From: a virus
Length of the DNA: 64,000 nt
IMG/VR virus record: IMGVR_UViG_3300025150_000004
Span: 32,001-96,000 of that record
Strand: one strand, 5' to 3'
Below are positions 34,254-56,956 of this stretch, one piece after another. The notes under the pieces are model-generated. The model was not told the DNA's origin. It was given only the letters and a program-made list of their open reading frames with translations, and ran no database searches. Position 1 is the first letter of the stretch, and every line of letters starts with the position of its first letter. A program made the translations under genes and the position numbers.

Positions 34254-36215
34254 ATGGGTCTTTCAAGTCTCGCTCTCGACATCGGCCAATCGGTCGCTCC
34301 TGTTCAGGACGCAGTCGCCGACATCATCACCTTCGTCGAGGCCCGTTGGGGTCTGAACCAGAAGCTCTACCCCGTCCAACGGATCATCCTCAAGTGCCAC
34401 TACGGCATCCCGCTGGATGACAACCCGTGGGGGCTCGACCTCAGCCAGCCGGTTCCACTGGGTCATCCCCAGTACGACGAGATCACGACAAAGGAGGGCT
34501 CGGAGAAGGGCTTCTACCGCTGGCGGGTGAAGATCTCCGACTGGCGGCGGGAGAACTGGAGGATCATGTCGGAGGCCGACTACCTCCGAATGCTCTACGA
34601 CGAGGGCCGCTCGAACATCCGAGAAGTGGTTCCTGGCCATGAGCGTCGGGAGATGGTGCTCTCCATCGGCCGCCGGTCCGGCAAAACCCACCTGGCCGCC
34701 TGTGTGGCCGCCTACGAGACCTACAAGCTCATCAAGAAGGGGGACCCGCAGTTCTACTACGGGCTCCCGGTCGGCGAGGTCATCGGCATCATCTCGGTCG
34801 CCACGGACAAAGAGCAGGCCGGGATCCTCTACTCGAAGGTGTCCGGTTACTACAAGGAGTGCCCTTACTTCGGCCCCTACACGGCCAACAACACGATGTC
34901 CTACGCCCGGTTCCAGACCCCCAAGGACATCGAGCGTTACGGCCGGTACATCGAGGACGAGAAGGCCAACGCCACCATTCGGGTGACGTTCCGGCCCTGT
35001 CGAGCCAAGGGTCTTCGAGGCCCTGGCAACATCGTCATCATCCTCGACGAGCTTGCCCACTTCTCGGACGGCGGGCAGTCGTCGGCCAAGGAGGTCTACG
35101 ACGCCGTCACCCCGTCGATTTCTGCCTTCTCCCCCAAGGACCCCGAGGACGCCACGACCCCGACCGGGGACGTGGAGGGGCGGGTTCTCTCGATCTCCAG
35201 CCCCCTGGGCAAGCAGGGCCAGTTCTACACGCTGTTCCAGATCGGCATGAAGGGCGGCAAGGCCGGGGAGAACATGGTGTGCATCCAGGCACCGACCTGG
35301 GAGGTGAACCCGACCGTCCCGTCCAACGAGTTCGAGAAGCACTACCTCAAGGACCCCAACGTTTTCTTCACCGAGTACGGGGGCGAGTTCACCGACCGGA
35401 CCCGGGGCTGGATCGACGATGCGGCCGACCTTCTGGCCTGCGTGGACCCGGCTCATCGCCCGACCGACCGGGGTATGCCTCGCCGTTCCCACTTCGTCGG
35501 CCTCGACTTCGCCCTTGCCGGGGACGGCACGGCCATCGCCATCGGTCACGTCGAGAACGGGGTCATCGTCCTCGATTACCTGGAGGAGATCCGGGCCGGG
35601 GAGGGCAAGTACGCCCACGTCGAGCGCCTGGACTTCGACGAAGTGGCCGATTGGGTCCACGACCTGTCCAGGCGGTTCTACTTCGCCTCGGGTTTGTTCG
35701 ACCAGTGGGCCGGGATCGTGTTCGAGCAGGCGCTCAAGAAGCGGGGCCTCTCCCAGTTGGTGAGCACCCACTTCACGAAGCAGTTGAACAGCCAGTTGTT
35801 CAGCAACTTCAAGGACATGATGTGGGACAAGCGGCTGAAGCTGTACGACTGGCCGAAGCCAAACCCCAGCGCCGGGGACGGGAGCCGGGTCGAGCACTGC
35901 CCGTACATCATGGAGCTTCTGACCCTTCAGGCGGAGTACCAGACCAAGTACATCACGGTCGTCTCCGCCCCCAACGCCCCGGGGAAGCACGACGATATGT
36001 CGGACGCCTTGGTTCGGATGGTCTGGGCGGCCAGTCAGAACATCACCAAGACCCCCTACATCGCTGGGTCTCGGGACAAGCAGGTGCGGGGGCGGACCGT
36101 CCCCAGTCCTGCGGCCGTCCGCAAGGCGTTCATCAAGTCCAAGCGTGTCGGTGGCAGCAGCCCTGATCGGCAGCCCTCCCGCATCAACCGAGGTCGGATT
36201 CGTGGGAGGTTCTGA
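34254..36215 (+). CDS. Terminase large subunit
   Basis: LYPVQ, IGRRSGKT (Walker A), IILDELAHF (Walker B), SSP, FVGLDFAL ... D, FDQW, GKHDDMSDAL nuclease motifs. Confidence 0.93.
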   Translation: MGLSSLALDIGQSVAPVQDAVADIITFVEARWGLNQKLYPVQRIILKCHYGIPLDDNPWGLDLSQPVPLGHPQYDEITTKEGSEKGFYRWRVKISDWRRENWRIMSEADYLRMLYDEGRSNIREVVPGHERREMVLSIGRRSGKTHLAACVAAYETYKLIKKGDPQFYYGLPVGEVIGIISVATDKEQAGILYSKVSGYYKECPYFGPYTANNTMSYARFQTPKDIERYGRYIEDEKANATIRVTFRPCRAKGLRGPGNIVIILDELAHFSDGGQSSAKEVYDAVTPSISAFSPKDPEDATTPTGDVEGRVLSISSPLGKQGQFYTLFQIGMKGGKAGENMVCIQAPTWEVNPTVPSNEFEKHYLKDPNVFFTEYGGEFTDRTRGWIDDAADLLACVDPAHRPTDRGMPRRSHFVGLDFALAGDGTAIAIGHVENGVIVLDYLEEIRAGEGKYAHVERLDFDEVADWVHDLSRRFYFASGLFDQWAGIVFEQALKKRGLSQLVSTHFTKQLNSQLFSNFKDMMWDKRLKLYDWPKPNPSAGDGSRVEHCPYIMELLTLQAEYQTKYITVVSAPNAPGKHDDMSDALVRMVWAASQNITKTPYIAGSRDKQVRGRTVPSPAAVRKAFIKSKRVGGSSPDRQPSRINRGRIRGRF

Positions 36216-36472: not shown

Positions 36473-36888
36473 TGGCGCTGAAGGACCGCAGAAGGGCCAA
36501 AGCCGAGCAGACCAATCCGGTTGACCGGGAGGTTCAGGGGCACTTGCAGGTAGCCCTCAAGGAGATCGACCGGGCCATGGCCGTTTACGGACGGATCTCC
36601 CGTAGTGCCCGCCAGGAGGACCAGCAGGTCGCCGGGCGGGCTCGGCAGAACAGGGCCATCCTCGAAGCGGCCAAGGCCCAGTTGTCTCGGGTGACCAACC
36701 TGAAGGCGGCTCTCGAACAAGACATTGACCTGCTCCCCGAGACCGTCAGGGAGCAGTTGTCCCGGGAAGCCAGTCTCAAGCGCCGGGCCGAGGATGATGC
36801 CAAGAGGCGGCAGCGCCAGACCGAGGAGTCCGTCCAGAATCTCCTGGCCTCGCTCGGAAAGGGTGCGTCGGGAGCGGCGGCTGAATGA
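36472..36888 (+). CDS. Hypothetical helical protein
   Basis: TAATG overlap; coiled-coil character. Confidence 0.6.
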   Translation: MALKDRRRAKAEQTNPVDREVQGHLQVALKEIDRAMAVYGRISRSARQEDQQVAGRARQNRAILEAAKAQLSRVTNLKAALEQDIDLLPETVREQLSREASLKRRAEDDAKRRQRQTEESVQNLLASLGKGASGAAAE

Positions 36889-38792
36889 GGCGGAACGACC
36901 CCAAGTACACCGTGAAGGTGGCCACCGTCCCCAAACGGGCTGACGTGACCGTCGGCAAGCCTGGGAAGGTGGTGCGGACCGCCATGCGGGCCAAGGTCGC
37001 TTTCCCGATGGCGGGAGGCACCACGCTGGGCTCGGGTGGGAACTTCTACTCTCCCGAGCTTTCGCCGGACTTCCTCGAACTCCCCCAGAGCATCGACGAG
37101 CAGCGGAACTATTACCGCTTCTTCTACGACCACGATCCCTTCGTCGGTCAGGCCATCGACCTCCACAGTGAGCTTCCCCTCTCGAAGCTCCGCCTCCGCA
37201 AGCCCCGGGCGAAAAACAAGGCGTTGGCGGAAGCCTCCATGCGGTTCTGCGAGAGGTGGGTCAAGAGCATCGGCCTGCTCCAACGGCTCCTGGCAATCGT
37301 CCACGACTTTTACCTCATCGGAGAGGTGTTCGTTTTCGCCGAGGACACCAACCCCGAGATGCCCAGGGAGGTCACCCACCAGCCGCACCGGGAGGTGACC
37401 CCGGAAGGCAAGATCATCGACGAGTGGACCGAGAGGGGGGACGCCCGGGAGCGGATGGTCGAGTGGATGAAGAAGAACTACCAGGGCTGGACGGGCCTGC
37501 GTGTTCTTCCTCCCGAGCAGATCCACATCGAGTCGTTCCCGTTCACGGACAAACGGCTCATCGAACTGATCCCCGATTCCAAGACCAAGAGCCTGGTCGA
37601 GCGGGCACGGCAGGGGGACGAGCGGGCGGCCGAGATCGTCGCCACGTACCCGGCCGACATCATCCGGCACGTCCTCGACGGGACCAACATCCCTTTGAAC
37701 ACCAACCCGATGGCGGGGTCGTTCGTCCACTATCTGGCTCGGAAGAGGGCAGATTACGAGCCCCGGGGCAAGAGCCTTCTTCAGCGGGTCCTCCGGGTGC
37801 TCGTGTACCGGGACAAGCTCCGCCAGGCCCAGACAAGCATTGCCTCACGGCACATGACCCCCATCCGCATCGTGTGGGCGGAGGACATGAACGCCGAGCA
37901 GACCGAGGAACTGCGGGAGCAGGTGGACCTGGCCCTTCAGGACCCGGACTTCTCCATCATCGCCAACTTCCAGGTCAACTGGGAGGAGATCGGCGGGGGT
38001 CAGGGGAACCGGCTCCTCGAACTCACGAGCGAGTACGACCTCACCGACCGGCAGATGTACGCAGGGCTCGGGGTTACCGAGTCCCTCCTCTCCGGCGAGT
38101 CGAGCTACTCCGGCGACCGTATCCACCTGGAGGTCATCAACGTCCGCTACCTCCTGCTGCGGGAACTCCTTCAGGACTTCGTGGACCACCACCTCCTCGA
38201 ACCGATGTGCCGTCGGATGGGATTCGTCGAGATCGACGAGGACGGCTACGAGGTGGTCATCCATCCGAGGCTGTCGTTCACCAGGCTGGCCCTACGGGAC
38301 AATCAGGAGACGTTCGACGCCCTGTTCAACCTCTACCAGAAGGGGTCGCTGGACATCGACACCATCCTCGACCTGCTCAACATCGACCCGGACACGGTGC
38401 GGGAGAAGCTGGAGAGGGACTTCGGGACGTTCAACGACGCCACCTTCAACGAGCTTCTCCGAGCCCTCTACAGCCGGGCTGGGGATGCCATCGTCGAGAA
38501 CTCCGACTTCGTCGAGCAGATGGCCGAGCGGATCCACGTCACCTACAAGAAGCCGAAGCCCGAGGGCGTGGCCCGCTTCGCTTCGGTCCAAGGAGACGAT
38601 GGCGAGGCTCAGGACCCGATGGTACTGCTCAAGGGGGCCGTCAAACAGGCCATCAACGAGGTGTGGGCCACCGACCGCCCGCTCACGGGTTCCGATTGGC
38701 CGAGGGCAGCCACCCGGGAGCCCTCGGTTGGCGACCTGGCCCAGCAGGTGGCCGACTTGCAGGCCCAGATCGCCAAGCTCCAGGGTGGCTAG
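36885..38792 (+). CDS. Portal protein
   Basis: YDHDPFVGQAID, DFYLIGEVF, LPPEQI, RGKSLL ... LRQAQ, AGLGV patterns; position after the terminase. Confidence 0.85.
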   Translation: MRRNDPKYTVKVATVPKRADVTVGKPGKVVRTAMRAKVAFPMAGGTTLGSGGNFYSPELSPDFLELPQSIDEQRNYYRFFYDHDPFVGQAIDLHSELPLSKLRLRKPRAKNKALAEASMRFCERWVKSIGLLQRLLAIVHDFYLIGEVFVFAEDTNPEMPREVTHQPHREVTPEGKIIDEWTERGDARERMVEWMKKNYQGWTGLRVLPPEQIHIESFPFTDKRLIELIPDSKTKSLVERARQGDERAAEIVATYPADIIRHVLDGTNIPLNTNPMAGSFVHYLARKRADYEPRGKSLLQRVLRVLVYRDKLRQAQTSIASRHMTPIRIVWAEDMNAEQTEELREQVDLALQDPDFSIIANFQVNWEEIGGGQGNRLLELTSEYDLTDRQMYAGLGVTESLLSGESSYSGDRIHLEVINVRYLLLRELLQDFVDHHLLEPMCRRMGFVEIDEDGYEVVIHPRLSFTRLALRDNQETFDALFNLYQKGSLDIDTILDLLNIDPDTVREKLERDFGTFNDATFNELLRALYSRAGDAIVENSDFVEQMAERIHVTYKKPKPEGVARFASVQGDDGEAQDPMVLLKGAVKQAINEVWATDRPLTGSDWPRAATREPSVGDLAQQVADLQAQIAKLQGG

Positions 38793-38795
38793 CTC

Positions 38796-38809
38796 GGTTC
38801 CCTGTCTAT
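38796..38809 (+). promoter_or_regulatory. Putative late promoter, GGT-N7-CTAT
   Basis: GGTTCCCTGTCTAT in the 52-nt gap between the portal and the giant ORF. Confidence 0.5.
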
Positions 38810-38844
38810 TGTCCCCGGTGTGACAGGAACCGGAGAGGCGACCC

Positions 38845-41800
38845 GTGGCGATTCCTGACCCCATCCTCGAAGCACAGGCCCGGCGGCTCAAGGCACGGCA
38901 CCAGGTCAGGCAGGAGTGGGCCAATCTCGACCACATCCGCCTGGCCCGCTCGTACCAGGAGTACGTCGAGGAGAAGAAGCGGGACAACGAGCGCCCGCTT
39001 CCCAAGGCCGAGTGGGAGAAGTTCCAGGGGAAAGGGAAGTCCGAGTCCAAGGGACTGAAGTCCCAACCGAAGTCGGACCGGGCCAAGGCTTTTCTCTCGA
39101 AGGCCAACTCGGTCATGAGCAAGGCGTTCGAGGCGGCCTCCCACAAGGTCAAAACGTTCATCGCCGATCCGGTCGAGCGGAAGAAGATGACCCGGGAGAT
39201 GGGCCGGAGCGTGAAGAAGAATGCTCCCCGGGCGGCCAAGGCCATGTGGAACGGGTTCAAGGGCGAGGCCAAGGCCATCGCCGTGGATGCCCCTTCCATC
39301 CTGTTCAAGATGGCCAAGGAGCGCCGCAAGCCCACCAAGAAGGAGCTTCACACGCTCTACGGGGTCGGCGTCTACGCTGCCGGGACAGCCTTGGCTTTTT
39401 CGGGAGCCACCCCTCTGTTGGCGGCAGCCAAGGCGTTTGGGCACAGCATCACCCTGCACGCCACGTTCAAGGCTATCCACACGGTCGCCGACGAGATCTT
39501 CCTCGGGACCGAGGCCGTCGAGTCCGTGGCACTCGCTGGGGGCCTCGGTGACAAGCTCCCTGTGATGACGAGCGACATCCCGGGTCTGAACCACATTTGG
39601 GATTTCATGGCGGAGACAGCCTCCCAGGTCACCAAGCTCCCCATGTTGGTCGCCGCTGAGGGTAAGGAGCCAGAGGGCGAGGAGGAGAAGTTCCTCTACG
39701 ACCTCATGCAGCGGATCTACGAGGAGGCGGGCAAGGTCTTCGAGAACCTCACCGACGAGGACATCGAGGCCATCATGGCGCACGGGGTTGATGCCCCGTC
39801 CGGCTCGAAGTCGGCGGCCTATTTCAACTCTAAGGAAGATCGGTTTTTGTCCTATTTGAAAAATAGGACATGCGAACCAACTGCTCTCAGCCAGGATGTA
39901 CCGACCCTGTCCATGCCCGAGGTTTTTGTAGGGCACACCGGCCAAAACCGCAGCCTCGAAAACGAGGTTTCAGGGTTGCTCCAGCCGAATCCGTTTGTGC
40001 GGTCGAGGGTTGCACAAACCCCTATCTCGCCAAGGAGTTCTGTAGGCAGCATTACCATGCCTGGTACAGATACGGGGACCCCTCAAAGCGATTTCGCACC
40101 TCCAACGGGCAAGGGAGGATCAACACGTCCGGGTACAGGGTCATTACGGTTGACGGCCAGCAAGTCCTCGAACACCGGCACGTCATGGAACAACAGCTTG
40201 GCCGGGCTCTCCTCCCAGGAGAGACCGTCCACCATCTTAATGGACAGCGGTCCGACAACCGGCCCGAGAACCTCGAACTCTGGTCGAGGCACCAGCCAGC
40301 CGGGCAGCGAGTCGAAGACAAGGTCCGCTGGGCACGAGAGATTCTCGGCCGATATGGCGACCTCTATCCTGAGAATCGCTAAGAAATTCGAGTTGAACGT
40401 TGGGGATCCAGTTCTTTACGGGAAGTACAAGAACAAGAAGGGTGTGATCACCGGGTTCAAGACGGATGAGAAGTCTGGTGACCCCATCGTAGTCATCGAG
40501 CCCGTCCCAAAGGGCCGAAAGCAGACCAAAGAACTGAAGTTGTTCAAAGTCCGTTTTGACGAAGAGCGGGCCGACCCTGCCAAGAGGGCCGCCGAGATGT
40601 CCAACCGGGCCTCCGTGGCTCTGATGCGAATGCTCTCCGACATCGCTCGTCGCCTGGGGGCGGCCCAGCACGTCTACGTCGTGGGTGGGGCCGTGCGGAA
40701 CTTCGCCATCGGCGAGCCCATCAAAGACATCGACGTGGTGATCGACTCCGTGTCCCTCGGCAAGGACTCGGAGTGGTTCGCCAACCAGGTGGCCCGAGCC
40801 ATTCCCGCCAAGACCCAGGTGGTCACCGACCAGTACGGGGTCAGCAAGGTCTTCGTACTTTCACCCTGGGAGCTTGCAGGGCACCAGATGCAGGACCCGG
40901 CCCAGGCGGCCGTGGAGATCGCCAACGCCCGCAAGGAGAGCTACGGCGGGGCCGCCGGGAAGGGGTACAAGCCGGATACGGTGGAGCCTGCCACCATCGA
41001 GGAGGACGTTCGTCGCCGGGAGTTCACGTTCAACTGCATGGCTGGGGATACCCTCATCCCCACCGAGAAAGGCATCCTTCGCATCGACCAGATCGCCTCT
41101 CGGGACGGGGGGGATTATCAGGACATCCGCCTGACGGTAGCAGGGCAAGATGGCCCTTCGACTGCGGTGGGGTGGCAGTACAGCGGGTTCGCCCCCACCC
41201 TGCGGGTGACGACCGAGTGGGGTCATTCCTTCTCCTGCACGCACCATCATCCGGTTCTGGTTCTTCGGGGGCACAGCCATGAGTGGGTGCAGGCGGATCA
41301 GCTTGAGGAAGGTGACCTGCTCTGTGTGCCCGTGCGGCAGGTGACGAGGCGAACTCCTCTTGCCCTCGACCTGCCTGACCCGGTGCAGCCAAAGCACGGG
41401 CGGTTCAAGGAAGTCTGCAAGCCCGAGGTGATGACGCCTGAGTTGGCGTTCCTGATTGGGTGTGTGTTGGCCGAGGGGTCTAATACCCACAAGCGGGTGT
41501 CATTCAGCAACTCCGACCCGGCCCTCATCTCCCGATACGTCGAGTGTTTCCACGCTACGTTCGGAGTCCAGCCCTCACGCAACAAAGTGGTCGAGAAGGG
41601 GTCCGTCCGTGTTTTGCGGGGGGTGGAGTTCGTAGCCAATGCCGACGGCTACGACATCTACGCCGACAGCAAGGCAGTGGTTGGGTGGCTGGAAGACCTC
41701 GGCCTGTACTGCGGGGGGTCCAAGAACGGCAAGTCCGCTTCCCACCACAAGGTCGTCCCGTGGTCCATCCTGCAAGCCGATGAGCGCAGCCAAGGGGCGT

Positions 41801-44800
41801 TCCTCGCAGCATATCTGGAGGGGGACGGCACCATCCGGCCCGACTCGGGGCGCATTACCTTCTGCTCGGCTTCTCCCCATGTCCGACAGCAGTTGCAGGT
41901 GCTTCTGGGTGCCCACGGCATCTTGAGCAAGGTGAAGGACAGGTTCGTCTACATCAACGCCGTGGACTCTGCCATCCTGTGGGAGAAGATCCAGCCGTGG
42001 ATGGTGACCAAGGGGTTCGACTACACTCAGCGGGACAACAAGGCCCGCACCCGCTACGGCATCCCCGCAGATTACATCCGGGGTTTCCTCGCTGGGCGCA
42101 AGCAGGACACCGGCAGCCGGGCCGTTTACGCCACGGACGGAGATGGATTCCGAACCCTCCCCGATGTCCATGAGCCGGTTCGGAAGGTTCAGCGGCTTCT
42201 CCACGATGCCCATGCCCGAGGAGACTTCGACGGGTTCATGGCGAGCCTCAAGGTCATCAGCCCGGACGAGTTCACCAAGCTCCGGCGGTTGTTCGACCTC
42301 GGCTACCAGTACGTCGAGGTCACGTCGGTTGAAAATGCGGGGCAGCAGGACGTGTTCGACATCTCGATGGGCGAGGGGGTCGAGCCTGCTTTTGTGGCGA
42401 ACGGGGTGGTGGTCCACAACACCCTCATGTGGCGGCTGCTTGACCTCGCCAAGGGGCCGGACAAGGCCGAGATCATCGACCTCACCGGCTGCGGGGTCCA
42501 AGACCTGAAGGACCGACGGATGCAGTGCCCGTCGGACCCGGACAAGACTTTCTCGGACGACCCGAGCCGGATGCTCCGGGCGGTCAAGTTCATCATGAAG
42601 TACGGCATGAAGCTGACCCCGGACACCGAGGCAGCTATCCGCCGGAACCTGCCCAAGCTCAAGCGGGCTCCGTTCGAGGCCATCGCCGTCATCCTCGAAG
42701 ACACCCTGCTCAAGGATCCGGGCACGGCGAAGAAGTCCCTGCCCGTGATGAAGAAGCTCGGCTTGCTGGACACTGTGGCCGAGATGATCCGTGAGAACAA
42801 GGCGTTCCAGGCCCGGATGGAGCGGTGGGTCACCAGCAAGCCCATGCTGTTCCTGTTCGACCTGATGGACCTTGGCCTTCCCCTGGGGGCCAACGTCGGG
42901 TTCCTCAGCCGGGACCAGCAAAAGAGGCTCCGTCAGATCGCCCTTGGGATGCCGGAGGGGGAGCCGGAGCGGCTCCTCGAAGTGCTCCGGCAGCCCGGGA
43001 AGGTCATGGACACCCGGGCACTCATTCAGGAGTTCGGGCTCCAGGGGCGAGAGATCGCCCAGATGCAGAAGGACGTGGGGGTGCGGCTCCTGCTCGACAA
43101 CCCCACCCTGGCCAAGAACCCCAGGGCGTTCACCGACGCAGTGCGTCACGAGTTTGCCCGGCGGAAGACGGCTGGTTCCCCGCTGGTCCAGTTGAACATC
43201 GACTTGGGGGAGGGGCAGAAGGTCGAGAAGGTCATCCCGAGTGCCTCACTGCCTTACCTCATCGACAACGTGCAGGTGAGGCGGGTGGCCGGGGCGTGGA
43301 TCCGGCGTCGGGCTACCCGCATCCGAGGTCGTACCCGCTACCTGGCCATGCTCGATGACGCCTGGGAGCCGGTCCGGGTCAAGCTGGCCAATCCCCTCCT
43401 GCCTCAGCAGTTCGTCCAGACGCTCAAGGCCCTGATCGAGAAGGTGAAGTACAACGAGGCTCGGGGTCTGGGGGACACCGCCGAACTCTGGTTGGAGTGG
43501 CGGGAACTCTTCCAGAAGGGTCGTCAGTGGGGCGATTACGTCATCGACCACACAGCCATCCCGTCCGGCAAGGCCAAGGCCGGGGAGATGGGGGTTCGGG
43601 TCTTCCGAACCACCTACGGGCGGGGCAAGGGGCCTCGCCCCAGCATCGCCGCCTGGCTCAAGAAGAACGAGCGGTACTTCCGGGTGCTGGAGGAGGCGAC
43701 CCGCTGGCCCGAGCGGTCGGAGGGTGACGGCATCTTCAAGCACGGGCCGTTCACGGTACACAACACCGTGGGGGCCTCTGACAAGGAGATCCAGACCGCC
43801 AAGGGAATCATCGACCGAGCACTTCGGGCACTTCCAAAGACCGATGTCCCCGAGATGCGCCAGATGGCCTACGGGGACCTGTACCTGGTCGGCGAGATCA
43901 AGCGGAAGCGGTGGGCCGCCTGGTACATGCCCCAGAAGGACGCCATTTACCTTCGGCCGAAGATCAGCGGCATTTCGGCGGACGATTCCGCCCTGCACCT
44001 GGTTCACGAACTCACCCACCGGCTGTGGGCCAAGAGGCTCCCCGCTTTGGTGAAGACAGCGTGGAGCGCCCACCACTTCCAGATGTCCAACAGCCGCAGT
44101 GCCCTTGGAAGGCTCCCCGAAGCCGGGGAAGTCCTGCCCAAGGAGTTGGTGGTCAACCGGAAGCAGGTCAAGGTCGATAGCTACGACGAACTGGGCCAGG
44201 CCGTGCTCGTGGACGCCAAGGGGGGCGCACCCATCGGCAAGGTGAACCGGGTGAAGCTCCGAGAATGGATGGGCAACATCGAGTTCGTCGGCAAGTTCCC
44301 CTCCATCTACGCCTCCTCAGACGCCGAGGAGCACTTCTGCGAGGCCATGGCCCACAAGGGGATGGGGTCCCTCTCGGCAGACAACCTGGCGGCGTTCAAC
44401 CAGATCGTGCTGGGCAAGGGGGGGCCGACCCAGAGCGTGAAGGTGGGGCTCTCCGCCCCTCCGGGGTGGAAGACCGAGAAGAAGCCGAACGGCTGGGTCA
44501 TCTACACGAACCCTACGGGAACGGTGCGGGTGCAGGACACCCGACGGCCTCATCCCGAGCGCTACCAGTTGCTCGAATGGGCGCAGCCCACCATCGTGCA
44601 GGACGGCAAGAAGGTGCCCCGTGGGCGTCCCCAGTGGTTGGAGCACCACGGGTACTCCAGGCTGCCCGAGGCACTGGCGGCCGGAGTGAAGCTCACGCAG
44701 CGGGGTCGGACGGCCTCGCATCACCACATCCGCAACGCCTGCCCAGCCTGCGGGAACGTCTCCACCTGTCGGTGCCGGGCACCCAAGACGGTCGAGACGC

Positions 44801-47494
44801 ACGACCTCTGCTATGACTGTCGGGAGTCAGCGGTCAGGGTCGCCGCTCGCTACAAGAACAAGAAGGAAGTACCCAAGGCCGACGGCAAGGGGACAACCAC
44901 CGTCTACGAGTACAGCGACAAGCAGGTCCAGCACCGAAACCGGGAGAAAGCCAAGCGAGTCGAGAAGCTCCGAGGCTCCATCCACAAGCTCCGAGCACAG
45001 GTCAAGAAGGATCTGGGGGCCGAGGACGAGAAGACCCGAACCGTCGCACTGGTCGTTGGTCTGATGGATCACACCTACGAGCGGGTCGGTAACGACGAGT
45101 CGGCCAAGGACGGCCACTACGGGGTCACCGGCTGGCAGGTCAAGCACATCACGTTCGGCAAGGGCAAGGCCACCATTTCCTACGTCGGCAAGTCCGGCGT
45201 GAAACACGAGAAGGTCGTGGACGACGCCTCGCTCGTCTCCGCCCTCAAGAAGGCTACCAAAGGGAAGGGGTCGAACGACCGGATCTGTGACGGGGAGGAC
45301 TGCAAGGTCTCCGCTTCGGACGTGAACGCCTACCTCAAGCCGTTCGACATCACGGCCAAGGACATCCGTGGGTTCCATGCCAACACCGAGGTTCAGACCC
45401 GGCTCAAGGCCATCCGCTCCAAGGGTGGCAAGCTCCCCGAGGACAAGAAGGAGCGGGAGAAGAAGCTCAAGGCCGAGTTCAAGCAGGCTCTCGAAGAAGC
45501 TGCCAAGGCCGTCGGCCACGAGCCCTCGACACTCAAGTCCCAGTACCTCGTGCCGGGTCTGGAGGACGAGTTCCTCAAGGGTGGTCAGGTGAGCGACAAG
45601 CTCGACAAGCGGGCCATGTCCCTGGAAGAGGTTCGGGCTCTCAAGCAGGAGATCCTCGCCGAGTTGGGGTGGCGGACTGCCACGAAGACCAAGGGGGAGA
45701 AGGAAGAGGAGGAGGTCGAGCGGATGTCCCGTCCTGCTCCCAAGAAGAAGCCGCCCCGGCAGGATCTTCGGCGGAACCGGATGAAGGACGACGACAAGGA
45801 CACCGATGGCCAGGGGGCCGACAAGGACAAGGATCTGTCCCTCAACTACAAGCGGGTAGCCCGCCTCTACCACGCTGCCGTTCTTCAAGACCTCGGGGAC
45901 CTCGATCTGATGCGTCTCGCTGGAGACAAGCAGCACAAACCTGGCGACGTGTGGAAGACCGAAAAGGGCTGGCGAGGGAAGAAGAAGACCCCGAACCAGG
46001 GAGGGCATTTCGAGGGGAAAACTTTCCCCGACAGGGAGCAGGCTGAGGCTTGGGTCGCCGACCCAGACCCGGAAGGCGAAGACGACCAGGCTCCCGACGA
46101 GGAAGGCAGCCGGGCTCCTGACGAGGAGGGCGACCAGGCTCCTGACGGAGATTCTTCGGATCGGCCCGACCCAAAGGCGGAGGCCCGCAAAGAGCGGGAG
46201 CGGCATCGGAATGAGGTTCGTCGCCGGGGCCAGAACTTCGACAAGTCCCTGGACGCTCTGGTGGACACCATCTCCCCGGAGATGGCTGAGGTTCTGATCG
46301 ACCACCTCCCCAGCGGGGACGCCGACAAAGCCGCCATGGCGGAAGCCTTCGACATCCACCTTCACGTTCTCACCGAGGTGTACCTCGACGACGATAAGGG
46401 CTTCTCGAAGAAGGGGCTCGAAGATGCCGCTGAGGTGGTGTCCCTGTTTGGTAGCCCGCCCGACCCCGAGAAGGGGGAGGAGGACGACGCCAAGTTGGAG
46501 GCCAAGCGGGACGCCGCCCGCAAGGAGAAGCTCAAGGAGTTCGGCGAGAAGACCGCCAAGGAGAAGGGGGAGATCCTCGCCCGCCTGCACTTCGCCACGA
46601 AGGTGGTGGCCGATCCTACGGTCGTGGGTGGGCGGTCCTTGGCAGGGAGGACAGACCCCGAGGCCCTACGTGAGCGGGGGTCCGAGGCCGCCCGTCAGTA
46701 CAGCCGGTCGTCACCAGAGATCCGGGCCATGGCCGCCAAGAACGCCATGACCGCCTTGGAGGGGATGGCAGAGGACGACCCGAACCGGGTGGAGTTGGAC
46801 GCCATCGTGGACGGTCTGGCCATCGCCGCAGGCTCCAAGGGGGAGACCTTGGAGGTGGACGGCAAAAAGCTCCGGCCCCGTGCCTCCAAGGGCCACCAGG
46901 TCTTGTACGACCACCTCATCAAGGCTGGGAAGCAGGACATCCTGACCGGCACCATGCACGACCTCTACGGTCCCGAGGGGCGTGCAGCCGTGTCCGAAGC
47001 CCTGGACACGATGGATGACAAGGAGTTGGCCGCCTACGGCAAGACGGGGCACTTCTCGGAGCTTGCGTCCAAGCTCACCGACTCCAAGGTCGGTGAGGAG
47101 CAGAAGGCGTTCATCCGTGGGTTCCTCAAGCGCCAAGGGATCGAGGACAACGGCCCAGTCGTTCATCGAGGCGGCCGAATCCGAGTCGGGAATCGCAGGC
47201 GAGAAGCTCGAAGCTCAGTGGCAGGACCACATCTCCAAGCACCCCGAGGCCAAGGCGTGGGATGACCGCATTCTCTCGGCTGCCCAGAAGGGCGGGGCCG
47301 ATCAGGAGGCCCTGGAGAAGGAGTACCTGGTCTGGCGGTCCCAGATGTACCTCGAATGGCTCCGTCTGATGGGCATCGACCTCCCCAAGGGAAACCCGGA
47401 GCGTGCCCGGCACGAGCACATCACCGACACCAAGGACCCCACACTGCTCGGGGAGAAGCTCGTTCCCCAGGGGGAGGACAAAAAGACAGGCTGA
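38845..47494 (+). CDS. Giant multidomain (polyvalent-type) protein: KOW-like domain, intein-containing CCA-adding/class II nucleotidyltransferase, HExxH zincin, zinc finger, type IB topoisomerase; apparent frameshift near 47149 (stop at 47265 as read)
   Basis: NTase: VVGGAVRN/DIDVV/RRREFTFN/DDPSRMLRA. Zincin: HELTH ... YASSDAEEHFCE. TopIB: ERVGN/GKSG/AKDIR/GH/QYL. Coding bias continues in the 46982..47494 frame. Confidence 0.85.
39870..40382 (+). CDS. HNH homing endonuclease overprinted in an alternative frame inside the giant ORF
   Basis: Two C-x4-C ... C-x2-H zinc modules, GYR, LEHRHVMEQQLGRALLPGETVHHLNGQRSDNRPENLELW. Confidence 0.9.
   Translation: MRTNCSQPGCTDPVHARGFCRAHRPKPQPRKRGFRVAPAESVCAVEGCTNPYLAKEFCRQHYHAWYRYGDPSKRFRTSNGQGRINTSGYRVITVDGQQVLEHRHVMEQQLGRALLPGETVHHLNGQRSDNRPENLELWSRHQPAGQRVEDKVRWAREILGRYGDLYPENR
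41035..42420 (+). mobile_element. Intein (462 aa, LAGLIDADG) in the nucleotidyltransferase domain, +1 residue Thr
   Basis: EFTFN|CMAGDTLI ... CTHHH ... IGCVLAEG ... AYLEGDG ... VFDI ... VVHN|TLMWR. Confidence 0.93.
46084..46149 (+). repeat. 24-nt tandem repeat, about 3 copies (DQAPDEEG-like)
   Basis: gaccaggctcccgacgaggaaggc / agccgggctcctgacgaggagggc / gaccaggctcctgacgga. Confidence 0.8.
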
Positions 47495-47533
47495 CAACGA
47501 AACTTTGGCACCACAGACGGAAAGTTTGATGTT

Positions 47534-47570
47534 GGGGCGAGGCCCAAACTTCGCCTCGGCGATTTTTCTT
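47534..47570 (+). terminator. Probable intrinsic terminator after the giant ORF
   Basis: GGGGCGAGG-CCCAAA-CTTCGCCTC hairpin followed by TTTTTCTT. Confidence 0.5.
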
Positions 47571-47675
47571 CAATCTTCCTTCTATACGGCAGGGCTTATG
47601 AGCGGAGGGCCGTGTGCCCGTGCTTTCCGCCGTTAGGGAAGGACACCACGTTCACCACCTCGGAGGACTACGATC

Positions 47676-48314
47676 ATGGCATTGACCAAGAAGGGCGCAC
47701 TGCTCATCACCCGTGACCTGGACCGTGTGGCAACGGTCATCACCCGTGAGGCCAAGGAACTCGGGATTCCCGACAAGGTCGCCACCGGCTTCGCCGAGTG
47801 GTGCGACCGTCTGGCCGACCGCATCGAGGCGACGGCCGGAATCGACCCGAAGGACACGGCCGCCAAGGAGGCGCTCCTCAAGCAGGCGCTCTCCGGCGAA
47901 CCGGCGGCGAAGACCGACTACCCGTTCGACAAGGGCAAGACCTACGACGGCGAGGAGATCGGCAAGGAGCAGTCGGGTCCCCAAGAGGGTGACGCCGACG
48001 AGAGCTACATGCGGGGCGAGTTCACCCAGCAGGAGAACCGGGAGCTTCGGGAGAAGCAGGAGGGTGGCCAGATCTCCGGCGTGAACACCGACCCCCGTGG
48101 CCCCCGTCCCGGCGTCCAGGCGGCCCTCGACAACCTGTCTCAGGTCGTCAAGAGCGCCACCTACACCGACGACGTGGCCGCCAAGGTCGCCGAGGCCCTG
48201 AACCTCGCCGCCGACATCGCCAAGAGCGGTGCCAAGGCCGAGGACGAAGAGGAAGACGAGGGGGAGGCCAAGGAGGCTTCCTCTTTCAACCACGGCTACA
48301 ACCTGAACGCCTAA
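47676..48314 (+). CDS. Hypothetical acidic head-module protein
   Basis: GGAGG RBS; very strong codon bias suggesting high expression. Confidence 0.8.
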   Translation: MALTKKGALLITRDLDRVATVITREAKELGIPDKVATGFAEWCDRLADRIEATAGIDPKDTAAKEALLKQALSGEPAAKTDYPFDKGKTYDGEEIGKEQSGPQEGDADESYMRGEFTQQENRELREKQEGGQISGVNTDPRGPRPGVQAALDNLSQVVKSATYTDDVAAKVAEALNLAADIAKSGAKAEDEEEDEGEAKEASSFNHGYNLNA

Positions 48315-48339: not shown

Positions 48340-48936
48340 GTGAGCGAGAGGGCGGCATACGTCGATTACCAGCAGCGGGCTTCCGAGTTCGCCGTTGGCG
48401 ACGCAGTCTATCCGTTCATGTCGGGGAACCATGACCTGATGGGACGGGTCCAGGCTGTCTGGCCCGCCATCGGCATGGTGCAGGTCGAGTGGCCCCACGG
48501 GTCCGAGCGGGTTCCGGTGGAAGACCTCCAGCGGTATGAGCGAAAGGACCAACTGCCCCCTGCGGTGGGTCTCGACAACGTGCCCGGTGGGGCCTCCTCG
48601 GTCTCGGTTCCGGGCGGGCCGGTGGCTCCCAAGACGGCGACTCTCGCCATCGAGGGCTCCATCCGTCGGGTCGCCGAGGCGTTCGTCAAGAAGGCTCTCT
48701 ACTGGGGGGCCTCCGACCGGAAGTATCGTGCGACCAAGGGTGAACTGGATTCTGGGTCCTTCAACTGCCCCAAGTGTCGGGAGCACGCCCTCCGCAAGGC
48801 CATCTACAAGAGGCAGGAGGGGCGCAGTGAGCCTCTCCTGGGCTGCCCAAGCTGCATGTTCCTGATCAAGCGGTGCGACATCATCGGCTCGGACGAGTGG
48901 CGAGACCTGAACGAGCCCGTGCTGGAGGTGGCCTGA
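48340..48936 (+). CDS. Hypothetical protein with SH3-like N-terminus, RVAEAF motif and C-terminal zinc ribbon
   Basis: FAVGDAV ... GRVQAVW; CPKC ... CPSC. Confidence 0.75.
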   Translation: MSERAAYVDYQQRASEFAVGDAVYPFMSGNHDLMGRVQAVWPAIGMVQVEWPHGSERVPVEDLQRYERKDQLPPAVGLDNVPGGASSVSVPGGPVAPKTATLAIEGSIRRVAEAFVKKALYWGASDRKYRATKGELDSGSFNCPKCREHALRKAIYKRQEGRSEPLLGCPSCMFLIKRCDIIGSDEWRDLNEPVLEVA

Positions 48937-48937
48937 G

Positions 48938-51900
48938 ATGGCGTTCATGAAGTACGCCAGGGCCGTGGTCGAGCACCCTCACGTCTCCCGACGTGAGTGG
49001 GGCCAGATCCGCACGGCAGGACGTTCCTTCGGGAAGGTCCCGAGTTTCGCCCGGACCCGGGTGAAGCTGGCGAGGGGGTCTGTCCCGACCAACCTGGTGG
49101 ACCAGGCGAGCACCATCTTCGGGGATGTGTTCGACCCGGGTCAGTACCTCCTGACCCATGCCACCATCGTGGCTTCGGTGGATGTGTTCCAGCCCCAGGG
49201 GATCAAGCTCGGTTCCCAGTTGGAGGGCGGGTTCGTCGTCAACCGCAAGTACGGGGACTTCCGGGTCGAGCCGAGGTGCGCCCAGTTCATCAACAACAAC
49301 CGGGACGCCTGGACTCGTGGTGTCCTCCTCAAGGCGTTCGAGACGTTCATCGGCGGGCACAACTTCGTCGAGCACGTCCAGATCGAGTCGATGTCCAAGG
49401 GGCGGATCATCGACGCAGTGGCCCGGGACATCGGGGACTCGGTCTACATCGACATCCTCATCGCCACGGACCGGAAGCACCGGGACCTGGTGACGGCCAT
49501 CGAGAACGGCAAGATGGGCACTTTGTCGATGGGGTGTTTCCTGCCCGGCACGCAGGTCACGATGGCGGACGGTCGCCGCATCGCCATTGAGGATGTGCAG
49601 CCCGGTGACATGGTGCTGACCCACAAGGGCCGTGCCCGTGAGGTGCTGAACAAGCAGATCAAGGGTGGCAAGTGGGATATGCGGACGGTACATGCTGTTG
49701 GGCTGGCATCCCCCATCACGTCCACAGGCAATCATCCCTACTACGTCCTTCGGCCCGCCGAAGTGTGCGCTTGCGGGTGTGGCGAGAGCCTGCCCGCTTA
49801 TGTTTCTTCTGCGAAGAAACCGACGACACGAAGCCTCACACGGCGGTTCAAGGTCGGACACGACAAACGTGTCCTGAACCCCAACAACACCTACTCGCTG
49901 GATGAGTTCAAGCGTCGTAAGGCGCAGATGGACGAGATCCAGAACCCCGAGTTGGTGAAGGTTCGGGCCGATGAACTTCGGGTAGGGGATTTCATCGCCT
50001 TCCCACGGGTGAAGGATGGTGAGCACACCCTTTCCGTCTCTGACGGCAAGGCCCGTCTGCTTGGCTACTTCTTGGCCGAAGGGTGCTTTGCTAAGGAGAA
50101 GGGGCGTCCCGTTCAGGTGACGTTCTGCTTCTCGATGGATGAGAAATCTACGTTCGTTGCCGAGGTGGAGGGCCTGCTCAAGCAAGAGTTCCCAGACAGG
50201 CGGAATGAGCCGTGGGTGCAGGAGCGGGTTGACAGCAACAACTGCATGGTTCACATCCGTGACCCAGAGGTTGCGGCGTGGTTCAAAGAGCACGGCGGCG
50301 AGTACAGCCCTGGTAAGCGCCTGTCGGCTGACGCCATGAACTGGTCGGTGGAGAGCCACAAGCACCTGATCGGGGCGTGGCTAAACGGCGACGGCCACCG
50401 GGCCAAGGCTCATGGTGGGTTCCTTGTGGGCACCACTGTCTCACTGGACCTCGCCAGCCAGATGCACGCCCTGATGGCGAAGTGCGGTTGGTTTGCCCGG
50501 TTCGAGGCCCGCATCGGGTCGAAGTCGGTCACGGTGGCCGAGGCAATCAACGGTGGTGTTGCTGTTCGGGATGAGGCGACGGGGCGGCTTCCGGCGTACC
50601 TGCTGACCATCGGGAACACGCAGTCGGTCGAGTTGCAGGGCTACTGCGCCAAGGCTCCCACCACGGCGAAGTACAGCAACCAGAACAACCGCACTTTTGA
50701 GGATTGGGTGGTCAGCCCGATCACGGCCATCGAGGAGAGTACCTACGAAGGTTGGGTCCACGACATGGAAGTGGAGGAGGACCACACCTATGTTGCTGTA
50801 GGCGCCTGTGTGTCCAACTGCACCGTCGATGGGACCATCTGCACGAAATGCGGGCACTGGGCGGCCGACGAGACCGAGATGTGCTTCCCGACAGGCACCC
50901 GAATCCTGATGGCGGACGGCAAGTACGTTCCCATCGAGGAGGTGGTCGAAGGGGATCTGGTCGTCACCCATACGGGGGCGATCCAGCCTGTCCTGCACAC
51001 GATGGGGCGACACCACGACGGCAACGTCACCGTGCTGAACGTCGAGGGCGTGCCTCAGCCGATTCGGGCAACGACCGGGCACCGTTTCTGGGTCATGCGT
51101 CCCGAAACGCACTGCCAGTGCGGGTGTGGGCAGTCGTTTCGGCGCACCGTCGAACACGAACGGGGGGCGTCACAGGCGTTCCAACGTCGGTTCCTGCCCG
51201 GACACAACAGCAAGGTGATTCCTTTCCCGTCCGGGTTGTTCGCCCCGGCTGACAGCAGGAACACGGGGGCCAATCTGGAGTTCGTCCCGGCGAAGGACAT
51301 TCGCAAGGGCGACTACCTGACGTTCCCCATTCCTCAGCAGGTCACGGCCTCTCCCGAGGCTACTGAGGACAAGGCTCGTCTCATCGGGTTCTTCTTGGCC
51401 GAGGGGAGCTTCATCAAGCGGGATGGGGTACTTGTCGGCGTGAGCTTCGACTTCGGGGCGCATGAGTACGGCTCCCTTGCTGTCGAGGTCGAGGATCTGC
51501 TCAACAAGGTCTGGGGTCGGGACGAGCGCCGCACGGTGGACTTTGACTGGCGGCAGAAGGTGGCGTCGGAGGGTGCCAAGCCAATCCGTCGTCGCAAGAA
51601 CAGTCGTCCTGTCCCCACCGATCTCACCTGTCCGTCGTGTAAGGCACCTTCGGAGTACGCCTACAATGTCCGGTTTAAGAAGGGCCAGGACGACTGCTAC
51701 CAGTGCAAGGTGTGCAACCGTCAGTGGGTCGAGGGGTCGGACCGGGCCGTGAGGGCTTGCCGCAATCTGACGGGGGAGTCCGCCTGTTCGGTTCGGCTGA
51801 TGTGTTCCGAGGCTGCTGAGTGGTTCCACACCTTCTGCGGGGAGTACGCCCACGGCAAGGCGCTGGCTCCCGAGGTCATGTACTGGCCGCAGGAGATCCA

Positions 51901-53362
51901 GAAGCACGTCCTGTTCGGTTGGTTGGGCGGGGACGGGACTCAGTCCCGGTTAGGGATCACGGGCAACACGGCGTCGTTCGATCTGATGAGCCAGATGCAC
52001 GTTCTGGCTGCCCGGTGCGGTTGGTATAGTCGCAAGCAGGTCACGTTCGACCGTCGAGCCGCCATCTTGGACGAGGTGGTCAACGGTTCCGGTCCGGTGA
52101 CGGTGCGAGATAGCAATGGATGGCTGCCTTCGTTCTCGTTGACCCTGCCCGAGCCTGCGGGCTTTGGTGGTGAGGTTAGGTTCACGGACCCCGAAAGCGC
52201 ACGGGTCACGTTGTCGGGTGTCACGGACGGTTTCAAGCGGGTGGGCAACTACCTGTTGTACCGGGTCCGAGAGGCATGGAACGAGTGCTTCTCCGGGCAG
52301 GTCCACAACATCGAGGTCGCCAAAGACAAGAGCTACGTCGTGGAGGGCATGGCCGTCCACAACTGCCCGCACATCAAGTACCAGAAGGGCAACACCTTCT
52401 TCGACGAGCAGGGTCGGCAGCACATCATCGCCGAGCTTTGCGGGCACGAGAGCCTCGACCCAACCGGCGGCGTCACCTTCATCGAGGCGTCGTGGGTTGA
52501 GACACCAGCCTTCACGGGAGCGGTCCTCCGCAACGTGATGGAGGCGACCGAGGAGACGGCCAAGAAGGCCGAGGCAGTTCTCAACTCCCCGCCCCCCCAG
52601 TGGTCCACCGCCGCCATGGCGAAGGCCGCAGGGATGACCAAGACGGGCGTGGGGATCGACGCCCTGGAGCGGGCGGCGCAGCAAGATGGCCGTGTCGTGG
52701 GCCGAGTAGCCCACGGTCCTCTGACTTCTCCCGAAGTCCTCTCTGTCGGGGCCAATCCTTCGATGGAGGCCGACCTGTTCCTGTCGGGATGGGACGAAGA
52801 GGACGACGAGGGGGCCGACGCCCCCGCTGCACCTCCGAAGGAGGAGGGCACCCCTCTCGAAGAGCTTCGCCAGGAGGTCAAGCAGCACCTCCTGAACGAG
52901 GTCAAGCGGGAGATCAAGGACGAGATGAGGAAGAAGGACGTGTCCGACCGCCTCGACTCCACGGCCCCCAACGACACGGTTCAGCATGAAGCTGATGGCC
53001 TCGGGACGCCCTCAAGATCCCGACAGCACGAGGCACGGGCCTACACGGCCGGGATCAACACCTTGGTCCGCACTGCTGCCTCGGACATCGATCTGATGGA
53101 GGCGGTTGCCGCCTTCAACAGGGAGGCAGGGGTTTCGGTCCCTGTCCCGCTTTACCGGGCGGCCCTCAAGGTGGGGCCGTCTACCCAGTTCTCGGGGTCT
53201 TCGACATCCGAGTTCGTCCGGGCCTGCCACGCCGCTCTGGGACGGCAGCCCAACACCACTGAGGTTCGGGTCATGGCCCGTCTCAGCCATCTGCTGTCCC
53301 GTCGGACTTCGGCCCGCACGGGGAACCACAAGGCAGTCGCCACAGAAGGAGCGTTGACATGA
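48938..53362 (+). CDS. Prohead (capsid maturation) protease precursor with two inteins; about 552 aa spliced
   Basis: NFVEH, KGRIIDA, LSMG (catalytic Ser), CTKCG, FIEASWVETPAF; located before the scaffold and capsid genes. Confidence 0.85.
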   Translation: MAFMKYARAVVEHPHVSRREWGQIRTAGRSFGKVPSFARTRVKLARGSVPTNLVDQASTIFGDVFDPGQYLLTHATIVASVDVFQPQGIKLGSQLEGGFVVNRKYGDFRVEPRCAQFINNNRDAWTRGVLLKAFETFIGGHNFVEHVQIESMSKGRIIDAVARDIGDSVYIDILIATDRKHRDLVTAIENGKMGTLSMGCFLPGTQVTMADGRRIAIEDVQPGDMVLTHKGRAREVLNKQIKGGKWDMRTVHAVGLASPITSTGNHPYYVLRPAEVCACGCGESLPAYVSSAKKPTTRSLTRRFKVGHDKRVLNPNNTYSLDEFKRRKAQMDEIQNPELVKVRADELRVGDFIAFPRVKDGEHTLSVSDGKARLLGYFLAEGCFAKEKGRPVQVTFCFSMDEKSTFVAEVEGLLKQEFPDRRNEPWVQERVDSNNCMVHIRDPEVAAWFKEHGGEYSPGKRLSADAMNWSVESHKHLIGAWLNGDGHRAKAHGGFLVGTTVSLDLASQMHALMAKCGWFARFEARIGSKSVTVAEAINGGVAVRDEATGRLPAYLLTIGNTQSVELQGYCAKAPTTAKYSNQNNRTFEDWVVSPITAIEESTYEGWVHDMEVEEDHTYVAVGACVSNCTVDGTICTKCGHWAADETEMCFPTGTRILMADGKYVPIEEVVEGDLVVTHTGAIQPVLHTMGRHHDGNVTVLNVEGVPQPIRATTGHRFWVMRPETHCQCGCGQSFRRTVEHERGASQAFQRRFLPGHNSKVIPFPSGLFAPADSRNTGANLEFVPAKDIRKGDYLTFPIPQQVTASPEATEDKARLIGFFLAEGSFIKRDGVLVGVSFDFGAHEYGSLAVEVEDLLNKVWGRDERRTVDFDWRQKVASEGAKPIRRRKNSRPVPTDLTCPSCKAPSEYAYNVRFKKGQDDCYQCKVCNRQWVEGSDRAVRACRNLTGESACSVRLMCSEAAEWFHTFCGEYAHGKALAPEVMYWPQEIQKHVLFGWLGGDGTQSRLGITGNTASFDLMSQMHVLAARCGWYSRKQVTFDRRAAILDEVVNGSGPVTVRDSNGWLPSFSLTLPEPAGFGGEVRFTDPESARVTLSGVTDGFKRVGNYLLYRVREAWNECFSGQVHNIEVAKDKSYVVEGMAVHNCPHIKYQKGNTFFDEQGRQHIIAELCGHESLDPTGGVTFIEASWVETPAFTGAVLRNVMEATEETAKKAEAVLNSPPPQWSTAAMAKAAGMTKTGVGIDALERAAQQDGRVVGRVAHGPLTSPEVLSVGANPSMEADLFLSGWDEEDDEGADAPAAPPKEEGTPLEELRQEVKQHLLNEVKREIKDEMRKKDVSDRLDSTAPNDTVQHEADGLGTPSRSRQHEARAYTAGINTLVRTAASDIDLMEAVAAFNREAGVSVPVPLYRAALKVGPSTQFSGSSTSEFVRACHAALGRQPNTTEVRVMARLSHLLSRRTSARTGNHKAVATEGALT
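49535..50818 (+). mobile_element. Intein A in the protease (428 aa, LAGLIDADG, ends SN)
   Basis: SMG|CFLPGTQV ... TGNHP ... LGYFLAEG ... AWLNGDG ... VHDMEV ... CVSN|CTV. Confidence 0.92.
50882..52363 (+). mobile_element. Intein B in the protease (494 aa, LAGLIDADG, extra zinc ribbon)
   Basis: TEM|CFPTGTRI ... TTGHRF ... IGFFLAEG ... GWLGGDG ... VHNIEV ... AVHN|CPH. Confidence 0.92.
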
Positions 53363-56907: not shown

Positions 56908-56937
56908 TTGACCTTCTCACTTCGATGTGTTTACATT
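56908..56937 (+). promoter_or_regulatory. Sigma70-like promoter for the LAGLIDADG-MTase gene
   Basis: TTGACC-N18-TACATT with an A-rich upstream region. Confidence 0.5.
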
Positions 56938-56956
56938 TGAAGTCAGAGAGGTTGAA

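Follow-up and report, generated by a model that had tools for sequence, protein, structure and literature searches.

A multi-enzyme gene behind the portal gene

We analyzed a 64,000-nt stretch of viral DNA (the window; positions 32001-96000 of one 142,891-bp IMG/VR virus record, IMGVR_UViG_3300025150_000004), in which a single giant open reading frame (ORF) follows the portal gene of a phage head module. Because the completeness of the record is 27% according to CheckV, the genome of this phage is probably near 500 kb in size. The giant ORF (38845..47265, + strand; protein P0001) encodes 2,806 amino acids (aa). It begins with a GTG codon located 53 nt past the portal gene and preceded, 5 nt upstream, by the ribosome-binding site GGAGAGG, and in an alignment this start matches that of the related proteins, which read M-x-DPILEAQARRLKAR. 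With a frame change near the 3' end corrected, as the C-termini of the relatives indicate, the predicted protein has approximately 2,884 aa. This agrees with an earlier note made from the DNA letters alone, which had described an ORF of at least 2,806 aa, or about 2,880 aa once the frame was corrected. The protein joins a class II nucleotidyltransferase (NTase), a zincin and a type IB topoisomerase (TopIB), and all the motifs that the note had named lie exactly where it had placed them. The parts of the gene are the following:

38845..47148, + strand: main frame of the giant gene as far as the frame change (aa 1-2768)
47147..47494, + strand: rest of the protein, read in the +1 frame, approximately 115 aa and stop
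38845..39825, + strand: N-terminal domain, aa 1-327, with the conserved leader helix DPILEAQARRLKAR and a hydrophobic hairpin LHTLYGVGVYAAGTALAFSGATPLL of very high conservation
39829..40398, + strand: 570-nt insertion read through in the host frame, aa ~328-517
39870..40382, + strand: HNH homing-endonuclease ORF of 170 aa in another frame of the insertion (Pfam HNH_3, 1.4e-10)
40399..40569, + strand: small domain, aa 519-575, directly ahead of the NTase (KOW-like by pattern only)
40612..41034, + strand: N-extein of the class II NTase, aa ~590 to 730 (head, with GGAVRN, DID, ARKE and RRREFTFN)
41035..42420, + strand: intein of 462 aa with a LAGLIDADG endonuclease, in motif B of the NTase
42421..43179, + strand: C-extein of the NTase, aa 1193-1445, with motif D DDPSRMLRAVKF followed by neck, body and tail
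43180..44484, + strand: zincin module, aa 1446-1880, a four-helix bundle and a gluzincin catalytic domain
43282..43299, + strand: joint motif RVAGAW
38938-38955, 40372-40389, 44836-44853 and 45853-45870, + strand: other R-[VIL]-A-x-x-[FWY] sites
44740..44820, + strand: Cys-rich, zinc-ribbon-like element CPAC...CRC...CYDC, aa 1966-1992, ahead of TopIB
44857..45744, + strand: TopIB module, aa ~2005-2300 (Pfam)
aa 2300-2550: highly charged linker
46501..47494, + strand: all-alpha C-terminal domain of approximately 330 aa, aa ~2553-2884, interrupted by the frame change

A word-indexed search retrieved more than 100 related proteins of 1.5-4.5 thousand aa, encoded on metagenomic contigs of up to 619 kb. 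The best relative, P0004, scored 3,041 bits and is 83% identical over the best local alignment, which spans a third of the query. Coverage of the query by the relatives shows that TopIB and the C-terminal domain form the core of the family and that the N-terminal modules are variable. Domains were counted by hand over the table of relatives, which gave 99 TopIB, 56 PolyA_pol, 16 DUF5661, 11 2_5_RNA_ligase2 (2H phosphoesterase), about 9 Intein, 7 RNA_ligase, 7 PAP2, 5 cREC_REC, 5 InPase, 3 ART-PolyVal, 3 LigT, 3 GGACT, 2 HAD_SAK_1, 2 NUDIX and 2 carbonic anhydrase domains, and ChaC, PARP, GNAT and SET once each. Domain swapping at the post-portal locus, which the note had considered, is thus apparent: the relatives exchange ART-PolyVal, InPase, 2H phosphoesterase, RNA ligase, HAD_SAK_1 and NUDIX domains, modules like those reported for injected polyvalent proteins. 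The variable enzymes cover RNA repair, NAD and nucleotide signals. RNA-repair domains dominate the variable part, which would fit a role of the NTase in tRNA repair. The copy in the window has the zincin module, an intein-split NTase, a read-through HNH gene and the frame change. In one relative (L007, 1-9313), the gene is spread over three consecutive ORFs: the first is longer than 1,108 aa, the second has 1,583 aa and contains TopIB, and the third has 770 aa and contains the C-terminal domain. This is either a split form or a sequencing error.

The note had recognized no described protein with this combination of domains. This holds for the literature, where our searches found no described phage protein joining TopIB and NTase, but the combination is not unique: PolyA_pol and TopIB occur together in more than 50 clusters, and some members carry the JGI label 'tRNA nucleotidyltransferase/poly(A) polymerase/DNA topoisomerase IB'. 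Among GenBank phages there was no match at the nucleotide level, and at the protein level only intein matches, LR745208.1 (TopIB), Virus Rctr197k (zincin module) and PaBG were found. Judged from these searches, the family is confined to huge uncultured phages.

Position in the head module

The giant ORF lies right after the portal gene, as the note had it, and is surrounded by the following head genes:

34254-36215: TerL gene (phrog_2, 3e-28)
36885..38792, + strand: portal gene, directly upstream of the giant gene (phrog_16240, 2e-27)
48938..53362, + strand: head maturation protease gene, third gene downstream, with two inteins (Hint/intein domains)
53359-55023: EF-hand calcium-binding head-module protein of 554 aa
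55915..56787, + strand: major head protein (MCP) (phrog_2522, 1.3e-51)

We compared the window with loci L002 (from the TARA ocean data), L003 (a 331-kb contig), L004 and L006 (314 kb), all of which share one gene order: TerL, two small genes, portal, optional small enzyme genes, the TopIB protein, two genes of ~200 aa, a gene of ~500 aa, an EF-hand protein of ~550 aa, a gene of ~210 aa and MCP. The ~500-aa gene encodes a head maturation protease, as indicated by phrog_18299 matches of 2e-11 and 4e-9 on the intein-free copies of L002 and L006. Hidden Markov models of the S78 and S77 prohead proteases matched nothing in the record, and the S77 control likewise matched nowhere. When LR745208.1 (485 kb, GenBank) was included, the TopIB gene was found between the portal and head-maturation protease genes in six of six loci. 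Its size increases from TopIB alone (528 aa in LR745208.1) through TopIB with the C-terminal domain (1,252 aa in L006) to the giant forms, and among the small genes between portal and giant gene are a stand-alone PolyA_pol gene (L003) and a 2H phosphoesterase gene (L004). Identity across the loci is 59-69% for TopIB, 55-85% for the portal, 47-78% for TerL and 68-98% for MCP. Because TopIB is conserved like portal and TerL, we count it among the core genes and not among the accessories of an arms race. Altogether, these comparisons support the view that a modular multi-enzyme protein occupies the portal-to-protease slot of the head module.

The head module is also a hotspot of inteins, since they occur in TerL of L006 and in the protease homologues of L004 and L007 as well. 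The protease gene of the window, with its two Hint/intein insertions, encodes 1,474 aa, compared with about 470-536 aa in the relatives. Directly after MCP lies an ORF (56927-58891) with a LAGLIDADG_2 endonuclease and weak HNH and DNA-methylase similarities. Elsewhere in the window, two unusually long tRNA genes of ~90 nt (Pro-TGG and Ser-CGA; 19173-19262 and 22004-22095) lie in the coding-dense + strand.

Modules of the giant protein and the motif at their joints

The TopIB module matched Topoisom_I (PF01028) over aa 2029-2232 with 96.3 bits (cut-off 23.7; 2.3e-27). Its catalytic pentad consists of Arg2080 (45082), Lys2116 (45190), Arg2175 (45367), His2225 (45517) and Tyr2234 (45544-45546), which align with R137, K174, R239, N280 and Y289 of the Deinococcus radiodurans structure 2f4q (numbers read from the alignment), and it is invariant in 100 of 100 family sequences. 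A Topoisom_I core with the pentad in order (His or Asn in fourth place) is what defines a type IB topoisomerase in sequence, and the module is predicted to be catalytically complete. The Pfam match, the 2f4q alignment and the invariance of the pentad thus bear out the assignment in the note, which had placed the catalytic Tyr at 45544. The Cys cluster that it had seen at ~44740-44820 is likewise present at that place and occurs in ~19 relatives. Together with the N-terminal domain, the small domain, the charged linker and the C-terminal domain, this zinc-ribbon-like element had no significant match in Pfam, NCBIfam or PHROG.

The C-terminal domain was modeled with a predicted local distance difference test (pLDDT) score of 91. 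Its fold found no counterpart in the PDB (best E 1.2), BFVD (best E 0.59) or the ESM Atlas (TM<0.5), a lack of matches that does not prove a new fold. When 1.84 billion representatives were searched with a profile of the domain, 191 clusters (50% identity) carried it, in every case at the C-terminal end of the protein or close to it. Co-folding with the portal protein gave a score of 0.19 against a mark of 0.32, which weighs neither way. The frame change falls inside this domain and was placed within 47146-47149. P0001 up to Asp2768, followed by the ORF of the next frame (P0002, 46982-47494) from residue 56 on, is collinear with the C-termini of the relatives, and at least nine of these (P0005, P0004, P0006, P0008, P0013 and P0014 among them) are uninterrupted in this region. 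Where the relatives read KRQGIED-(M/L)-TTAQ, the two halves lie in different frames of the window, with TTAQ in +1 relative to KRQGIED. The site contains no homopolymer, and the change would fit the loss of 5 nt between two GACA repeats.

In the NTase, the PolyA_pol head (PF01743) scored 42.2 bits (cut-off 23; 1.3e-10) over aa 610-735. The domain is accompanied by GGAVRN, DID, ARKE, RRREFTFN and DDPSR (GGAVRN and DID at 40684-40740, RRREFTFN at 41011-41034, DDPSR at 42556-42570), which together characterize a class II NTase. The PHROGs label is tRNA nucleotidyltransferase, and the nearest solved structures are the Aquifex aeolicus A-adding enzyme (1.5e-15) and the Bacillus stearothermophilus CCA enzyme (1.8e-13), with Escherichia coli poly(A) polymerase at 3.5e-13. 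NCBIfam models for PcnB, CCA and A-adding enzymes gave similar E values (1e-23 to 1e-12), all with scores far below their cut-offs. The NTase and its motifs, which the note had located at ~40600-43170, are confirmed, but the range holds a 462-aa intein that had been missed. The intein starts with Cys731, ends with His-Asn1192 and is followed by Thr1193 at +1; it sits in a conserved motif, and both Intein_splicing (PF14890) and LAGLIDADG_3 (PF14528) are over the Pfam cut-off, as expected of a LAGLIDADG intein. Since the allele of P0005 lacks the intein and reads RREFTFN|TLMWRL, both junctions are fixed. About 9-11 relatives share this intein.

The HExxH zincin proposed in the note is borne out by invariant ligands and by the model fold. 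HELTH lies at 44005-44019 (His1721, Glu1722, His1725) and Glu1829 at 44329-44331, and these four residues are invariant in 17 of 17 sequences (alignment A2). An AlphaFold model of the module (pLDDT 88) resembles the catalytic domain of lethal factor (1yqy; VIA Z 9.8, 155 aligned residues, root-mean-square deviation 3.3) and the Pro-Pro endopeptidases PPEP-3 (VIA Z 9.3) and PPEP-2 (9.2); Foldseek on the same model returned weak zincin rows only (E>=0.006). With an HExxH helix, a downstream Glu and, in the model, a zincin fold, the module has the features of a gluzincin. MPTase-PolyVal (PF18818) remained below the Pfam gathering cut-off in the window protein (E 0.19) and matched weakly in 7 of 17 zincin-module members (best E 0.0099), which suggests a distant resemblance only. 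The giant ORF of Virus Rctr197k (KX853510.1, L001, 5629-12156; ~2,175 aa), located between TerL and portal, has a zincin module of 36% identity (2e-55) and no TopIB. The zincin module thus travels between different head-locus giant proteins.

The N-terminal domain is present only in ~10 close relatives, and P0005 retains just its first 25 residues. The 570-nt insertion behind it is unique to this genome and missing from all aligned relatives. The note had missed it. It carries the HNH gene, which is preceded by an AT-rich hairpin, and shows the signature of neither an intron nor an intein; Rfam detected no group I intron at E<=1 over 38600-47700. In the host frame the insertion reads as a 190-aa stretch rich in Ser, Thr, Gly and Pro, so that an S/T/P-rich linker results from reading the HNH gene through in the host frame. 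In this GC-rich genome (63% GC), off-frame windows of the length of the insertion are open by chance in ~6% of cases, and selection for read-through in the host frame across the HNH gene is plausible. The small domain that follows accompanies the NTase in ~55 relatives, always ahead of it. The KOW-like label that the note had given it was not confirmed, as no Pfam family matched aa 515-600 even at E<=5.

A short motif recurs in the linkers between the modules. R-[VIL]-A-x-x-[FWY] occurs 5 times in the giant protein, 4 times at module joints (ahead of the small domain, the zincin and TopIB, and behind TopIB) and once inside the N-terminal domain (aa 32-37). Diverged copies (KSAAYF and RIAKKF) border the 570-nt insertion on either side. 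In 103 relatives, 208 copies were observed versus 17.6 expected from shuffles; 153 of them, in 82 of the 103 relatives, lie outside two homologous positions and give the logo R-V-A-[AS]-R-[YWF]-[LV]. The motif is also found on separate proteins. It is terminal on two small post-portal proteins of L004 (a 2H phosphoesterase and a 157-aa protein); in L003, a 321-aa post-portal protein has it at residue 259, and the PolyA_pol gene lacks it. Far from the head module of this genome, the motif occurs at the C-terminus of a HAD_SAK_1 RNA-repair phosphatase, at residue 19 of an SNF2 helicase, internally and at the C-terminus of a C39-like peptidase protein, and at the C-terminus of a 296-aa protein:

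genome 9117-9710 (L005: 1118-1711): HAD_SAK_1 phosphatase gene
genome 16241-18373 (L005: 8242-10374): C39-like peptidase gene
genome 21400-25068 (L005: 13401-17069): SNF2 helicase gene
window 29807-30697: gene of the 296-aa protein

The same targeting or processing system may act on these distant proteins. The motif is real; it may serve as an address tag or a cleavage signal, or form a docking helix. Two neighbors contain conserved stretches: the ~200-aa protein encoded two genes past the giant gene (48340-48936) has RRVAEAFVKK, kept in all relatives examined, and the major head protein keeps LRVARVYMNAR.

Possible functions and comparison with known systems

We consider it fairly probable that the giant protein belongs with the polyvalent phage proteins, as a variant built around TopIB, and that its enzymes travel as a kit inside the capsid. 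It would be made late, alongside the head proteins, and loaded into the prohead, where the head-maturation protease or its own zincin might cut it at the joints, and it would exit the capsid with the DNA. TopIB could then deal with the torsional stress of so long a genome as it is ejected and first transcribed, or even earlier, while it is being packaged, and the NTase, healed first by intein splicing, could restore damaged tRNA 3' ends. Enzymes of a late head operon would be able to act early only if they were carried in the virion. Iyer et al. 2017 (PMC5512222) made the case that phages package and inject the polyvalent proteins encoded with portal-terminase head genes. In the text of that study topoisomerase occurs only within a reference title and CCA never, and in a later study the TopIB and CCA enzymes mentioned, those of jumbo phages, all stand alone (Iyer et al. 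2021).

Several observations weigh against a packaged enzyme kit. A GenBank search found the fused form in no cultured phage. The MuF domain (PF04233), which the note had named as usual at such loci, was detected neither in P0001 nor, at E<=0.1, anywhere in a six-frame translation of the record. The CCA, A or poly(A) specificity of the NTase is not separated by the NCBIfam scores or the mixed PDB ranking. Anchoring of the protein in the prohead by its C-terminal domain is a guess, since the fold is without counterpart. This copy could moreover be impaired, with its C-terminal domain broken by the frame change and an HNH gene inside the ORF. Finally, for the cultured Pseudomonas jumbo phage PaBG, a distant relative, a survey of the virion that identified 14 bands lists gp80, gp81 and gp83 and not the TopIB gp84, although such a gel survey is insensitive (PMC7412058).

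It is also possible, though not likely, that in this lineage of 140-600-kb phages TopIB is a core head component held by the C-terminal domain and serving as a swivel in packaging or ejection, and that the joint motif is a portable address or processing tag by which any enzyme could be brought into the capsid. Tagged enzymes would then be fused behind the portal or encoded elsewhere, as are the HAD phosphatase, the SNF2 helicase and the C39 peptidase, and the phage would have a cargo system that can be programmed, much as encapsulins are through their loading peptides. A serious rival, though less probable than the cargo reading, is a late intracellular role outside the virion, in which TopIB would act in replication, concatemer processing or packaging at the portal, the NTase would keep the phage tRNA pool, and location in the head operon would serve co-expression only. 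Conservation of TopIB like the core morphogenesis genes and its ability to stand alone after the portal speak for such a role, as do the many tRNAs in the genome that a CCA enzyme could mature and the missing PaBG band; however, the variable modules (ART-PolyVal, InPase, 2H, NUDIX, PARP and RNA ligase) are typical counter-defence effectors, which are needed at entry, and neither the portable joint motif nor the universal C-terminal domain has an obvious role in a soluble cytoplasmic enzyme.

We regard it as improbable that this particular copy is decaying or non-functional. The frame change truncates a conserved domain, the HNH insertion adds 190 foreign residues whose host frame has the above chance of being open by accident, and L007 has the gene in three pieces, but none of the catalytic residues in NTase, intein, zincin or TopIB is damaged, no further stops occur across the 8.3 kb of the gene, and an error of assembly may account for the frame change. 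The probability that the ORF is an assembly chimera, which the note had raised as a concern, or a chance open frame is negligible. This GC-rich genome does contain many long spurious ORFs, but module order and neighbors agree in more than 100 independent metagenomic relatives, which rules out a chimera, as does the score of P0004.

If the giant protein is capsid cargo, it would be the first tailed-phage counterpart of the poxvirus virion topoisomerase and a natural enzyme kit that pairs control of DNA topology with RNA repair and counter-defence. The joint motif would be a testable handle on the choice of capsid cargo and might be used to bring foreign proteins into capsids. Both the CCA-type enzyme split by an intein and the HNH gene read through in the host frame point to heavy colonisation of the locus by selfish elements.

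The TopIB module shares the Topoisom_I core and the R-K-R-H-Y pentad with the vaccinia and D. radiodurans enzymes and aligns with 2f4q and 2h7f, but it differs from them in being a module of a 2,884-aa head-locus protein with a zinc ribbon ahead of it, and identity is low (E 6e-11). Vaccinia TopIB travels inside the virion. Other packaged head proteins include the T4 internal proteins and Alt, which has an N-terminal capsid-targeting sequence, P1 DarB, the ejection proteins of SPN3US and phiKZ, and the N4 virion RNA polymerase. The giant protein is like all of these in proposal only. They are loaded into the head as enzymes and leave it together with the DNA, and some of them are targeted by a short peptide and trimmed by the prohead protease. 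In contrast to these, it shows no sequence relation to them, it is seen here from genes alone, and its motif is internal, repeated at joints and terminal on separate proteins. Compared with class II tRNA NTases (A. aeolicus 4wby/1vfg, B. stearothermophilus 1miv and E. coli PcnB 3aqk), the NTase has the same head motifs A, B and D and, once spliced, the full head-to-tail size, but it is fused into a head-locus protein, carries a LAGLIDADG intein in motif B and has a small beta domain ahead. Jumbo phages with free-standing CCA enzymes have been described (PMC7824862). PaBG (KF147891; PMC7412058) encodes a stand-alone TopIB (gp84), an SprT-like zincin (gp89) and a HAD protein (gp90) just upstream of an MCP distantly related to that of the window (22% identity, 9e-8); unlike in the window, the genes are separate and without the C-terminal alpha domain. 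In architecture the giant protein resembles the polyvalent proteins of phages and conjugative elements (PMC5512222). Like these, the giant protein is very large and multi-domain (2-15 domains), is encoded beside the portal-terminase head genes and shuffles its domains among relatives, which include ART-PolyVal, InPase and 2H domains, and its zincin-like peptidase has the weak MPTase-PolyVal similarity. It differs from them in having no MuF, SNF2 or methylase core and in being built instead around an invariant core of TopIB and a new C-terminal alpha domain, with the recurrent R-V-A-[AS]-R-[YWF] motif at its joints.

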